Shown here in pieces: positions 1,582 to 5,912 of a stretch of DNA of 64,000 nucleotides (position 1 is its first letter; every line of letters begins with the position of its first letter). Made by a program: the position numbers and the translations under genes. The DNA lies in the NCBI GenBank assembly GCA_963677925.2, contig CAXXYH010000004.1, positions 416,001 to 480,000 of the forward strand, written 5' to 3'. The DNA comes from Spirochaetia bacterium. Its GTDB lineage: Bacteria > Spirochaetota > Spirochaetia > UBA9216. The notes below the pieces were generated by a model, which was given only the letters and a program-made list of their open reading frames with translations, was not told where the DNA came from and did no database searches.

Positions 1582-3012
1582 GTGGAATACAAAGTAAAAG
1601 ACATAAATCTGGCCGATTGGGGCCGGAAAGAAATTGAGATCGCAGAACATGAAATGCCGGGCCTTATGGCGATCAGGGCAAAATATTCTAAGGAAAAACC
1701 GCTAAAAGGGCTTAGAATAACCGGTTCACTTCACATGACAATTCAGACAGCAGTGCTAATTGAGACTCTCGTTGAACTTGGAGCCGATGTAAGATGGGCA
1801 AGCTGTAATATTTTTTCAACCCAGGATCATGCTGCTGCAGCTATTGCTGTAGGACGGCCTGAGAACGGCGGAACAGTTGATAATCCTAAGGGTGTTCCTG
1901 TATTTGCCTGGAAGGGTGAAACACTCGAAGAATACTGGGAGTGTACCCTTGATGCGCTTAGCTTTCCGGGAGGAAAGGGACCAAACCAGATTGTTGATGA
2001 CGGAGGCGATGCAACCCTGCTTATCCACAAGGGTGTTGAACTTGAAGGCGGAGACGGATGGGCTAAGACTGCTTCAGCAAAGCACGAAGAAAAGGTAATC
2101 AAAGACCTCCTTCTTAAAGTTAACAGTGAGAACGCATCATTTTTCACGGATATGGCAAAGGAAATACGCGGATGTTCCGAGGAAACAACAACAGGAGTTC
2201 ACCGTCTTTACCATATGATGGAAGAGGGAAGCCTGCTATTTCCCGCTATTAATGTTAATGACAGTGTAACAAAGAGCAAGTTCGATAACCTCTACGGCTG
2301 CCGGGAGTCACTTGCTGACGGTTTGAAGCGGGCAACTGATGTAATGATTGCCGGTAAGGTAGCTGTTGTGTGCGGCTACGGCGACGTAGGCAAGGGCTGT
2401 GCGCAGTCAATGCGCGGATTCGGTGCCAGAGTCGTTGTTACTGAAATAGACCCAATATGCGCCCTTCAGGCCTCAATGGAAGGATTTGAAGTAAGTACTG
2501 TTGAAGACACACTTGGAACCGGAGACATCTATGTTACAACAACCGGTAATAAGGATGTTATAACCGCTGATCACATGAGTAAAATGAAAGATCAGGCAAT
2601 AGTCTGCAATATCGGTCACTTCGATAATGAGATTCAGGTTGATGAGCTGAATGCATGGAAGGGCATAGAAAAGATTAATGTTAAACCTCAGGTTGATAAA
2701 TATGTCTATGCAGACGGTCATGAAATTTTTCTTCTTGCCGAAGGCAGGCTTGTGAACCTGGGATGTGCTACCGGGCACCCCTCATTTGTCATGTCCAACT
2801 CTTTTTCAAACCAGACGCTTGCTCAGATAGATTTAGCTGAAAATGACTACAAACCTGGAGTATACCGTCTTTCAAAGAAGCTTGATGAAGAGGTAGCAAG
2901 GCTGCACCTTGAAAAGATAGGTGTAAAGCTTACTAAACTTTCAAAAGATCAGGCCGATTATATCGGAGTAGATGTAGAGGGTCCCTATAAACCTGAACAC
3001 TACAGATACTGA
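1582..3012 (+). CDS. ahcY: Adenosylhomocysteinase (SAH hydrolase)
   Basis: [52 protein letters not shown]-terminal YRY; GTG start with GGAG SD. Confidence 0.97.
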
Positions 3013-3035
3013 TTCGTTTTATAACTTTTCATATT

Positions 3036-3262
3036 AAGCTTTTCCGGTCCTTTGCTTACTTGAACCGGAAGGGCTTTTAAATAAACATCTTGAAAAAGAT
3101 GATCATTTTGTACCGGTTCCCATAACCGGGGCAATCTAAGGAGTAATAGAAAATAACATTCAGCTTTTTCAAAGCTTCTGTTATTTTTTATTTAAGAGAA
3201 ATCAAATTACATTTGATTTTTCCCTCCTCCTGATTCCGCATCCATGCGGAAAAAATAAGGAG
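3036..3262 (+). promoter_or_regulatory. Highly structured ahcY-metK intergenic region; candidate cis-regulatory RNA
   Basis: Six consecutive hairpins; anti-SD CTCCT present twice; upstream AATCTAAGGAG can compete for it (see findings). Confidence 0.5.
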
Positions 3263-3268
3263 AATAAA

Positions 3269-4432
3269 ATGGAAAATAGAAACTATCTTTTCACTTCCGA
3301 ATCGGTAAGTGAAGGTCATCCCGACAAATTATGTGATCAGATCTCTGATGCAGTTCTTGATGCATGTCTGGCAGATGATCCACAGTCCAGAGTAGCCTGT
3401 GAAACGTTTACAACAACCGGAATGGTACTTGTAGGCGGAGAAATCACAACCAACACCTATGTGGATGTGCAGGAAATAGCAAGAGGAGTAGCCAAAAAAA
3501 TCGGCTATGTAAAACCCGAATACGGACTGGACTGCGAATCCATGGCGGTACTCAATACAATTCACAGCCAGTCGCCCGATATCTCCCAGGGAGTTACCGA
3601 CGGTGCAGGACTGTATAAGGAACAGGGAGCCGGAGATCAGGGAATGATGTTCGGCTTTGCCTGTAAGGAAACACCTGAACTTATGCCTGCACCTGTAATG
3701 TTTTCACATCAGATACTGCTGAAAGCAGCTGATATGAGAAAATCAGGAAAACTAATGTGGCTCAGGCCGGATTCAAAGAGCCAGGTAACAATTGAATATG
3801 AAGGATTTACACCAAAAAGAATCGATACTGTTGTAGTAAGCCACCAGCACGATGATGATGTATCATATGAAGAGATAAAAGAAAGTATAATAAAGAAGAT
3901 AATCAAACCGGTACTTGAGCCAACCGGATTACTTGCAGATGATACGAAGTTTTTCATCAACCCGACCGGACGTTTTGTAATAGGCGGTCCACATGGAGAC
4001 TCAGGACTTACCGGACGTAAAATCATAGTAGATACCTACGGCGGAATGGGCCGGCATGGAGGCGGAGCATTCAGCGGTAAGGATCCGTCCAAGGTCGACC
4101 GATCGGCAGCATACATGGCACGATACGTAGCCAAGAACATAGTAGCGGCAGATCTCTGTGAAAGATGTGAGGTAGAGCTTGCCTATGCGATAGGTGTGCC
4201 CTTTCCTGTATCAGTAATGGTGGATACTTTTGGTACATCAAAGGTCCCTGAGGCAGTAATAGAGGCGGCAGCAGAAAAGGTTTTTGATCTGACACCGGCA
4301 GGAATAATAAAAACTCTTGATCTTAAAAAACCGATCTTCCAGGAAACCGCTGCCTACGGACATTTTGGCCGGGATATCTTTTCCTGGGAAAAAACTGATA
4401 AAGTTAAAGAATTATTGAAAGAAATATCTTAG
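3269..4432 (+). CDS. metK: S-adenosylmethionine synthetase
   Basis: [47 protein letters not shown]. Confidence 0.98.
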
Positions 4433-4685: not shown

Positions 4686-5912
4686 ATGAAAAAAATAGCA
4701 CTTGTCCTTGCACTTCTGATGGTAATCGGAATGGGCGCATTTGCTCAGGTTGAAGCCTTTGTTTATGCAGAAATGGATACATCAGTAAGTATCGATCTTG
4801 AAACAGAAGAGCTCGCTCTTACAAACGCTCCGTTTGCAATGCTCCAGTTCAAATTCGGTGAGAATGTAGCAACTGAAGCTGGTGATGGTGTTTACGGTTC
4901 AATTTCTGTAAACAATCTTGAAGGTAACTACAGAGCATACGCACTTAGCGGCGACTGGTCAGATCTTACCTACGAAATGCACAGTGCAAAAGACCACTGG
5001 TCAGAAATGATCACTTGGGATGCAAGAATCGTTATGGGTCCTGCATACTTTAAAATTGATGGCGATGAGTCAATCAAAGCTAATGATGCAAGTCTTTCAA
5101 ACGTTGTTGATGACTACTCTCTCATCGGTCTTGATGTAGACGGCGCTCTCGTTTCTTTTGCAAAAGACGGTTCAGTTGAAGCTGGATACTCTGTTGAAAA
5201 CGTAATGGACATCGCTGTAGAATTCGGCGTTGTTAACGGAACTTTCGACACAGCAGGATATGCTCTTGATGCAGCAGTTTCTGTAACAGCAGTTCCCGGC
5301 CTCAGCCTTGATGCTAACTTCGTAACTGGTTTTGGTTCATACAGTGGATCAGATTCTGGTGTAGCAGTTGCAGTTGGATACGATGTAGCAGTTGGTGACA
5401 TGACACTTACTCCTTACGTTGGATTTGACGGAATTCTCGGAACTGAGTTTGCTTTCCAGATTGGTGGTGGTGCATCACTTACTTGGGACAGCGAAATGGG
5501 CGGAAAAGTTGGCGGAAGCGGATCTGATCCTCTTTCAAGATTCTTTGATGCTTCTGATAACTGGGTAGACGCAGGTCTTACAGTTGCTGCTGATTTCGAT
5601 TCAGTTACTGAAGATGTAAACGTAAAAGTTTCACATGCTTATGCTCCTGTTGAGAACCTTACAACTGTAGCTCTCGTTGAAGCTGGAACAGTTATTAACA
5701 ATGCTGTTTTCGGAATGGGTGCTTATGTTGACTACACAATGGGCGACATTAAACCACATTGCGGTTTCAAATACACAGAAGCTGCTACAGCTCTTGATCT
5801 TGGCGTAGCTTACACAGCTATCCCACAGACAAAGATTTATGCTAACTACATCTCTGATGACTTAGCAAACGACAGTGGCGCAATTACACTTGGTGCTGTT
5901 ATCAGCAACTAG
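4686..5912 (+). CDS. Abundant beta-barrel outer membrane protein, Msp/major outer sheath-like
   Basis: Signal peptide MKKIALVLALL...AFA; alternating amphipathic beta strands; strongly biased codons; GGAGG SD; monocistronic with perfect promoter. Confidence 0.7.
   Translation: MKKIALVLALLMVIGMGAFAQVEAFVYAEMDTSVSIDLETEELALTNAPFAMLQFKFGENVATEAGDGVYGSISVNNLEGNYRAYALSGDWSDLTYEMHSAKDHWSEMITWDARIVMGPAYFKIDGDESIKANDASLSNVVDDYSLIGLDVDGALVSFAKDGSVEAGYSVENVMDIAVEFGVVNGTFDTAGYALDAAVSVTAVPGLSLDANFVTGFGSYSGSDSGVAVAVGYDVAVGDMTLTPYVGFDGILGTEFAFQIGGGASLTWDSEMGGKVGGSGSDPLSRFFDASDNWVDAGLTVAADFDSVTEDVNVKVSHAYAPVENLTTVALVEAGTVINNAVFGMGAYVDYTMGDIKPHCGFKYTEAATALDLGVAYTAIPQTKIYANYISDDLANDSGAITLGAVISN

Follow-up and report, generated by a model that had tools for sequence, protein, structure and literature searches.

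A conserved, undescribed metK leader RNA in Spirochaetia that may be a SAM-II/SAM-V-like pseudoknot riboswitch

Why should two neighbouring genes of S-adenosylmethionine (SAM) metabolism be separated by a long and strongly folding spacer? The question is raised by a 64,000-nucleotide stretch of the genome of a Spirochaetia bacterium (GenBank assembly GCA_963677925.2, contig CAXXYH010000004.1, positions 416,001 to 480,000; hereafter the window, in whose own coordinates all positions are given), where ahcY, encoding S-adenosylhomocysteine (SAH) hydrolase, is followed by metK, encoding SAM synthetase, after a spacer of 256 nucleotides (nt) that has one match in its own genome, that is, itself. 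Positions 3013-3290 (278 nt) fold with a minimum free energy (MFE) of -84.1 kcal/mol, versus -50.3 +/- 4.4 kcal/mol for 200 dinucleotide shuffles of the same segment (z = -7.68, with none of the 200 as good). An earlier note on this DNA had read the spacer as a tile of six hairpins (H1 to H6) forming a new SAM- or SAH-responsive switch, and all six are indeed where it had placed them, both in the sequence and in MFE folds, H4 being longer than it had said. The heart of that interpretation, a conserved and covarying RNA upstream of metK with no match in Rfam, stands up well, while its anatomy was only partly right. As judged from the aligned leaders, the conserved unit is not the six-hairpin tile but H1 with its loop (hereafter P1), H3 (hereafter P2, which is optional) and a downstream block that the note had taken for a mimic of a Shine-Dalgarno (SD) sequence. 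This motif is a real, conserved and undescribed metK leader RNA. What it does is a matter of interpretation, and the explanation that we prefer, with a probability of roughly 0.4, is that it would be a pseudoknot riboswitch resembling SAM-II and SAM-V and acting as an OFF switch for metK, ligand binding being proposed by analogy.

The comparative evidence comes from 17 metK leaders of one spirochaete class, spread over four GTDB families or more. Each genome has a single copy of the motif, directly upstream of metK. In the window's GTDB family, which is also its whole order (11 genomes), a MetK protein search gave eight metK loci (no metK was found in three genomes), six of which have the core, G003 and G005 carrying other sequence. 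A covariance model built from eight sequences matches six of the 11 genomes of the order and, in 151 genomes of the class, one further genome from another family (G143, 38.6 bits). In the latter family, a MetK search independent of the motif found it at six of seven loci, adding G079, G054 and G018, the seventh locus being that of G160. Two pattern scans of 401 class genomes added G023, as well as G123, G102 and a contig binned with G287, the scan that yielded these last three giving five matches versus none in a reversed-pattern control; two metagenome contigs were also added by pattern scan. Chance matches made up one of six genome contigs and 42 of 44 metagenome contigs in the pattern scans, and 27 of the 35 genomes matched in the class scan were put down to chance, which is similar to the reversed-pattern control. 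Finally, of the 20 metK loci from other families that come next in closeness, one (G163) has a variant, the others having mostly short and plain ahcY-metK spacers. G163 is the most divergent member, with a linker of about 105 nt containing several strong hairpins and a loop that is 1 nt shorter.

The gene directly upstream of the motif is ahcY in 15 of the 17 members, as seen from the coding sequence for its C-terminus. In G163, ahcY lies further upstream behind its own terminator, and on the G287 contig the upstream gene is divergent. This contig, which is short, carries a second metK that is 78-81% identical to that of the window (61-64% for that genus's own metK), is frameshifted near residue 157 and has two stops in frame. 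The contig is probably either mis-binned or a decaying transferred copy, and it is counted here as a member of uncertain taxon. In G006, the ahcY stop and P1 are set apart by some 190 nt of additional sequence containing long inverted repeats, the motif next to metK being intact. Origin of the window's spacer from a repeat or mobile element was considered and rejected, in view of its single genomic match and of the fact that no terminal inverted repeats were seen.

Across the members, sequence varies freely in the P1 stem, in the linker and in P2, and the differences in the stems reveal base pairing. In a model-guided alignment of 10 sequences, the positions assigned to P1 and P2 pair in 89% of cells and eight of 14 pairs change on both sides, with a covariation score of 0.386 versus 0.162 +/- 0.031 after shuffling (none of 500 reach it) and at most 0.202 when the partners are slid. 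The P1 stem (12-13 base pairs, bp, in the window, with two G-U) contributes five to six of eight pairs that change on both sides in alignments of 10 and 13 sequences, and P2 three of six in the former; the picture with 13 sequences is similar. Because of this covariation in both alignments, P1 and P2 are real RNA helices, and the check in relatives on which the earlier note had made its proposal depend – conservation and covariation – has come out in its favour, with the core in 17 leaders and both stems covarying.

That the stems are RNA also bears on the idea that the conserved blocks act as DNA, either as a promoter (with TTGAAC of the loop as -35) or as an operator for a methionine- or SAM-responsive transcription factor. 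The loop does end in TTGAAC, and hexamers of the TAnnAT type precede P2 in several members of family f1 (seen by eye), but a sigma-70-like pair (at least 9/12, spacer of 16-18) occurs between loop and SD in only one of 16 members scanned and not in the window, the spacing between loop and candidate -10 varies with the length of the stem, and covariation of the surrounding inverted repeat is not something that a DNA site would require. We regard such a role as most improbable. A second DNA-level proposal, that H5 is an operator, which the earlier note had offered as its own alternative, is not favoured either, since in G007 a hairpin of similar length but unrelated sequence stands at the same place, which is the opposite of what would be expected of a protein operator.

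The most informative feature of the motif, overlooked in the earlier note, is the near-invariant loop of H1. Its consensus UUU-[G/A]CUU-N-CUUGA is identical in 16 of the 17 members, the exception being G163 with its shorter UUUGCUUUUUGA. At the core loci of the window's family, the loop UCCUUUGCUU[G/A]CUUGAA is identical while the P1 stem varies from genome to genome, and the order of parts is the P1 hairpin, an AU-rich linker, a second hairpin with a variable stem and the block CAAUCUAAGGAG. This tail block is the other fixed point. Its UCUAAGGAG is invariant in 17 of 17 members and always preceded by at least two A. In the window, where it forms part of AATCTAAGGAG at 3133-3143, it is followed by TAATAG and by no start codon; the earlier note took it for an SD mimic that pairs in an ON fold. 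This role cannot be generalised: in 14 of the 17 members, the block is the working SD of metK, 7-11 nt before the start codon (7-8 nt before the ATG in G004, G006, G010 and the two metagenome contigs), and minimal forms of the whole element measure 75-100 nt. Occlusion of the SD, the mode of action proposed in the earlier note, thereby stays plausible, with the qualification that the candidate masked SD is, in these 14, the supposed mimic itself.

Could all this simply be structural housekeeping of a bicistronic ahcY-metK transcript, with no sensor at all, H1 being a terminator, attenuator or 3' stabiliser for ahcY, H4 a second terminator and the other hairpins processing or stability elements? 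In the window, UUUU follows P1 and a U-run follows H4. Besides, ahcY and metK are neighbours across much of the class, as a rule with a short and plain spacer between them (at least 13 of the 20 loci when judged by a rough test for a C-terminal motif), so that the structured spacer is an add-on, and G160 lives without it. However, terminators do not preserve a loop of 13-17 nt unchanged from family to family on top of a changing stem, no U-tract follows P1 in genus g13, G163 has a separate and canonical GC-rich terminator with a long U-run upstream of P1, and the G287 contig carries the motif with no co-directional upstream gene. A simple terminator scan calls neither H1 nor H4 of the window as an intrinsic terminator, and a promoter scan called no sigma-70-like promoter there. 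On these comparisons, P1 is not a conserved terminator, nor simply the terminator of ahcY, and we consider a pure housekeeping function improbable.

If the element is a sensor, is it one of those already known? Control of metK through sequestration of the SD is the specific trade of the S(MK) box, or SAM-III. SAM-III is, however, a three-way junction (PMC6061858), not a hairpin-loop pseudoknot, and it has no Rfam match here. More generally, Rfam 15 gives no family at gathering score anywhere in the window, in agreement with the earlier note, which could not match the spacer to known SAM families; the Rfam match that the note had listed among its grounds for refutation did not turn up. The SAM-I model (RF00162) has no match in the window's genome (G000), G001, G004, G007 and G143, with positive controls detected; whole-genome searches of five genomes for SAH (RF01057) and SAM/SAH riboswitches gave no match either but carry no weight, the controls having been silent too. 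Two weak matches were taken as chance, namely Plastid-psbA-4 on H4 (25.6 bits versus a gathering score of 56.8) and Fibro-purF on G143 (13.2 bits, E 0.64). No description of a spirochaete metK motif was found in the literature searched (including PMC5737381), subscription journals lying outside its coverage.

What brings SAM riboswitches back into play is the way in which the two invariant blocks could fit together. We infer from their sequences that they would form a pseudoknot, for which two registers can be drawn. In register X, GCUUNCUUGA (3054-3063) pairs with UCUAAGGAG(C/U), one U being bulged; this is compatible in 99% of cells and gives a classical H-type topology, in which loop 1 is U-rich and 6-8 nt long and 1-3 nt precede P1. 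The one pair that varies, joining loop position 7 to the base that follows GGAG, is G-C in seven members, G-U in five, A-U in three and G-A in one. In register A, the loop UCCUU pairs with AAGGA, together with G:C and UUG:CAA, which is compatible in 95% of cells in 13 sequences. It was set aside: it lies flush against P1, leaving no loop-1 nucleotides, its terminal pair is broken in six of 13, and UCCUU becomes UCUUU, UUUUU or UGUUU in G023, the G287 contig, G054 and G018. Register X is preferred because of its topology and because UCCUU is lost in G054 and G018.

In this register, the candidate pseudoknot can be compared with two known folds. The SAM-V chain runs from its P1 through a third strand, a 3-nt turn and the descending strand of P2 directly back into P1, after which come an optional P3 hairpin, stacked conserved adenines and the ascending strand of P2, with the SD at the 3' end (PMC6061858). 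The adenine of SAM pairs with a bulged U47 and stacks between G21 and A48, the triple U20:A48.U9 forms the sulfonium site, and U19:A49.U10 lies next to it (PMC6061858); from its stated pairing, position 46 would be a C. SAM-II has the same U-G step (U21-G22), an unpaired U44 and A45/A46 with L1 residues U10-U12 (PMC3303485), and many of its representatives have terminators after P2 (PMC1273637). The spirochaete motif would share with them (i) an H-type pseudoknot built on one hairpin, (ii) a U-rich 5' part of the loop (U8-U10 in SAM-V), here a UUU directly before loop position 7 in 17 of 17 members that may likewise form triples, (iii) a 3' part of the loop that serves as descending strand and ends in U-U-G beside P1 (here 3060-3062), (iv) a single bulged U followed by A-A (here C-U-A-A at 3136-3139, with U3137 unpaired), (v) adenines before the ascending strand (here 3133-3134), (vi) an optional linker hairpin (P3 in SAM-V, none in SAM-II, here P2 in family f1 only) and (vii) an SD at or in the 3' strand, with terminators after the aptamer in some members (here H4). 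At the level of sequence, and in the proposed register, UC-U-AAG stands opposite CUUGA (UUUGA in G163) in all 17 members. There are also clear differences from both classes, that is, no covariance-model match at any threshold tried, a pseudoknot of different length, an SD (AAGGAG) that is wholly inside the pseudoknot strand rather than after it, only two pairs below the bulged U, a host range of Spirochaetia rather than Proteobacteria or Bacteroidetes, and an occurrence found only on metK.

A third comparison is with SAM/SAH riboswitches (RF01727), which are found almost exclusively on metK and hide the SD in an H-type pseudoknot between loop and tail (PMC7367207). In plan, the motif would resemble them as a translational OFF switch built on a small hairpin, with a highly conserved loop that pairs with the SD (GGAGC in SAM/SAH; PMC7367207). 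The motif is upstream of metK in 17 of 17 members, its candidate pseudoknot strand contains the SD in 14 of them, and letters are shared too, GCUU-N-CU in the loop and, for seven of the 16 tabulated members, GGAGC(A) in the tail. By contrast, the published loop AACGGCUUCCUGGC is absent from the motif, whose loop is longer, RF01727 has no match, the equivalent of C21 (which pairs with G47 in a triple that is more than 97% conserved) is G, A or U here, and SAM/SAH riboswitches are reported from Rhodobacterales.

Our preferred reading is that of a SAM-II/V-like OFF switch. The 3' half of the P1 loop would pair with the tail so that the H-type pseudoknot buries the SD, the loop UUU (3051-3053) would sit in the pseudoknot helix's major groove, and SAM, the product of MetK, would stabilise the whole, turning metK down independently of the co-transcribed ahcY. 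Several observations weigh against it. No SAM-type family is found at E<=10 on window positions 2700-3600, at four relatives' loci or on the 89-nt minimal form, and when RF00521 and RF01826 were searched at E<=10 per genome (G004, G010, G143, G123 and G054), no match fell in the metK spacer. In all 17 members, the equivalent of SAM-V A50, which holds the amino-acid end of SAM in that riboswitch, is a G, namely the one with which GGAG begins (this G can pair with loop C12, which is U in G163). The pseudoknot shows no covariation, seven of its eight pairs never varying; since both strands are invariant, covariation says nothing for or against these pairs. The variable pair at position 7 is near what base composition would give (about 13.7 of 16 compatible by a hand calculation, 15 observed). 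The loop-tail duplex is weak, at -4.2 to -10.1 kcal/mol, with 3% to 61% of shuffled loops as good, and loop-tail complementarity was for that reason rejected as statistical evidence. Register A fits equally well in 13 sequences. Moreover, outside families f1 and f9, the patterns by which most members were found themselves include the conserved blocks, so that invariance is there partly by construction, which it is not in the f1 and f9 samples found through MetK. The element is also dispensable, as 19 of the 20 next-closest metK loci lack it and, in a genus that otherwise has the structured spacer, G160 has 14 nt (TCAAGGAGCTAGC) from ahcY stop to metK start. Lastly, 125 nt separate the window's old SD block from the start codon, so that any link to translation would be indirect.

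Many of these points would sit comfortably with an alternative in which the same leader RNA answers not to a metabolite but to a translational repressor protein or a small RNA (sRNA) acting in trans, with the P1 loop and the SD block as the binding site, or is a constitutive or temperature-sensitive SD mask that sets the MetK:AhcY ratio. The invariance of loop and tail, the covariation of the stems and the specificity for metK fit it equally well, as do a duplex no stronger than chance, a pseudoknot with no covariation and the lack of an aptamer model match. The linker of genus g13 (G018 and G054), between P1 and the SD block, contains a second copy of the loop-like UUU(G/A)CUUGCU, as repeated binding sites would, and the G018 copy is nearer to the family consensus than G018's own loop. 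On the other hand, no candidate protein or sRNA is known, the match with the SAM-II/V pocket (a bulged U between C and AA that faces U-G, plus a UUU strand) would have to be a coincidence, and ahcY-metK is the classic context for SAM-type riboswitches (PMC7367207). We see this alternative as the main rival, somewhat less probable than the SAM-II/V-like reading.

How does the window itself fit in, given that its tail block has no start codon to serve? Together with G001 and G007, it is one of three long forms among the 17 members, in which an extra module of about 105-125 nt, made up of H4, H5, an anti-SD, H6 and a second SD, puts 106-125 nt between the tail block and the metK ATG (Table 1). 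All three share H4 and H6, and in all three the second SD pairs with a pyrimidine run that lies upstream of it (consensus fold), a run in which the window has two copies of CTCCT (3224-3228 and 3227-3231); the base of H4 is conserved in G001 and G007 (RNAalifold), and H4 as first drawn, at 3150-3187, is present but sits inside a longer stem. None of the 24 pairs of the module shows a compensatory change, in a sample of three sequences from only two lineages. Under the SAM-II/V-like reading, the signal could be relayed in the long form either via termination at H4 or via the CUCCU run, for which the old SD block would compete with the second SD. Throughout the three long forms, CAAUCUAAGGAG is unchanged even though no start codon follows, which argues for a role of the block beyond ribosome binding and is the best internal argument for a non-SD function.

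Table 1. Coordinates of ahcY, metK and the elements of their spacer in the window
Feature	Position	Strand	Evidence and remarks
ahcY (SAH hydrolase), gene upstream of the motif	1582-3012	+	Pfam AdoHcyase, E 1.3e-145
P1 (= H1)	3036-3076; stem 3036-3047 with 3065-3076, 17-nt loop 3048-3064	+	MFE folds, covariation
P1 loop UCCUUUGCUUACUUGAA	3048-3064	+	UUU 3051-3053 proposed as third strand; 3054-3063 (G7 to A16) proposed as 5' pseudoknot strand
H2, linker hairpin insertion, 6 bp	3086-3101	+	Only in G000 (window) and G001, that is, the window's genus
P2 (= H3), optional linker hairpin, 6 bp	3113-3129	+	In all eight members of family f1 and none of the nine others
Tail AA-UCUAAGGAG-U ('SD mimic')	3133-3144	+	Proposed 3' pseudoknot strand; bulged U 3137, A-A 3138-3139
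H4, A-tract/U-tract hairpin, 14+6 bp, then AUUU; terminator-like; long forms only	3145-3192	+	MFE fold
H5, 12-bp hairpin; long forms only	3196-3222	+	MFE folds
Pyrimidine run CUCCUCCU, anti-SD for the second SD	3224-3231	+	Pairs with 3258-3262 both when folded without constraints and in the consensus of the three sequences
H6, 7 bp, loop UCCA	3234-3251	+	MFE folds; conserved in G001 and G007
Second SD AAGGAG, placed before the window metK start	3257-3262 (AGGAG 3258-3262)	+	Sequence; ATG 3269
metK (SAM synthetase), regulated gene	3269-4432, ATG at 3269	+	Pfam S-AdoMet_synt N, M and C domains

It is on the long form that the model of the earlier note was built, that is, one new aptamer plus platform comprising all six hairpins, in which the AAGGAG further upstream acts as a decoy, paired with CUCCUGAUU in the ON fold, as opposed to CUCCU:SD in the OFF fold. 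Its bistability is partly borne out. Both folds exist in the window and are nearly isoenergetic, some 2 kcal/mol apart (-75.5 kcal/mol when AGGAG 3139-3143 is forced to pair with CUCCU 3227-3231, -77.5 kcal/mol for CUCCU with AGGAG 3258-3262, and -78.0 kcal/mol when unconstrained), and all three long forms keep the anti-SD, H6 and the second SD. However, the 9-bp ON helix (3133-3143 with 3227-3235) is found only in G000 and G001, G007 having just GGAG:CUCC (4 bp, by eye). The tile is not conserved as one piece either, H2 occurring in two of the 17 members (G000 and G001) and H4-H6 in three. With a module that lacks compensatory changes and a decoy that is the true SD in most members, the six-hairpin model appears very unlikely as a description of the motif.

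A few other observations on the leader were made in passing. In the window, a four-codon mini-ORF (open reading frame) at 3245-3259, AUG CGG ARA AWW UAA, starts in the H6 loop and ends with a stop that overlaps the second SD (UAAGGAG); it has the same frame and length in G000 and G007, with no SD before it. The TAAGGAG repeat that flanks the long-form insert is expected from two SDs anyway and was not taken as a sign of a mobile element. A candidate antiterminator may be drawn by eye between GGAG of the tail and CUUCU, UUCC or CUCC inside H4. A conserved UUUUG before P2 is complementary to CAAAA in the short forms of family f1, or to AAAAUG in the window, before or at the start codon, suggesting by eye a possible helix around P2; in the MFE fold of the window, 3104-3111 are paired with the start-codon region (the partner of the conserved UUUUG being 3263-3271). 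Just downstream of metK, at 4686-5912 on the + strand, lies a 408-amino-acid ORF with no Pfam match at E<=0.001.

Pushed to its full extent, the SAM-II/V-like reading would make this RNA an undescribed subclass of SAM-sensing riboswitches in Spirochaetia, with a triplex pseudoknot pocket of the SAM-II/V type but another contact for the amino-acid end, dedicated to metK and placed inside the ahcY-metK operon, where it would throttle SAM synthesis independently of SAH clearance. Its expression platforms would be direct occlusion of the SD in the short forms and a relay through a terminator or an anti-SD in the long ones, in which the former SD would have become purely an aptamer strand. We put this full version forward more tentatively than the reading on which it builds.

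What would it mean for spirochaetes? Should the RNA bind SAM, the SAM-II/SAM-V pseudoknot riboswitches would gain a spirochaete branch, in which the same pocket would have been rebuilt with a whole SD sequence as one of its strands, and the RNA would explain how metK is uncoupled from ahcY, with which it is co-transcribed. The motif would also offer a natural experiment, that is, close relatives in which the sensor is either fused to the ribosome-binding site or split from it by a module of about 105-125 nt, the split form having kept its old SD unchanged without using it for translation.

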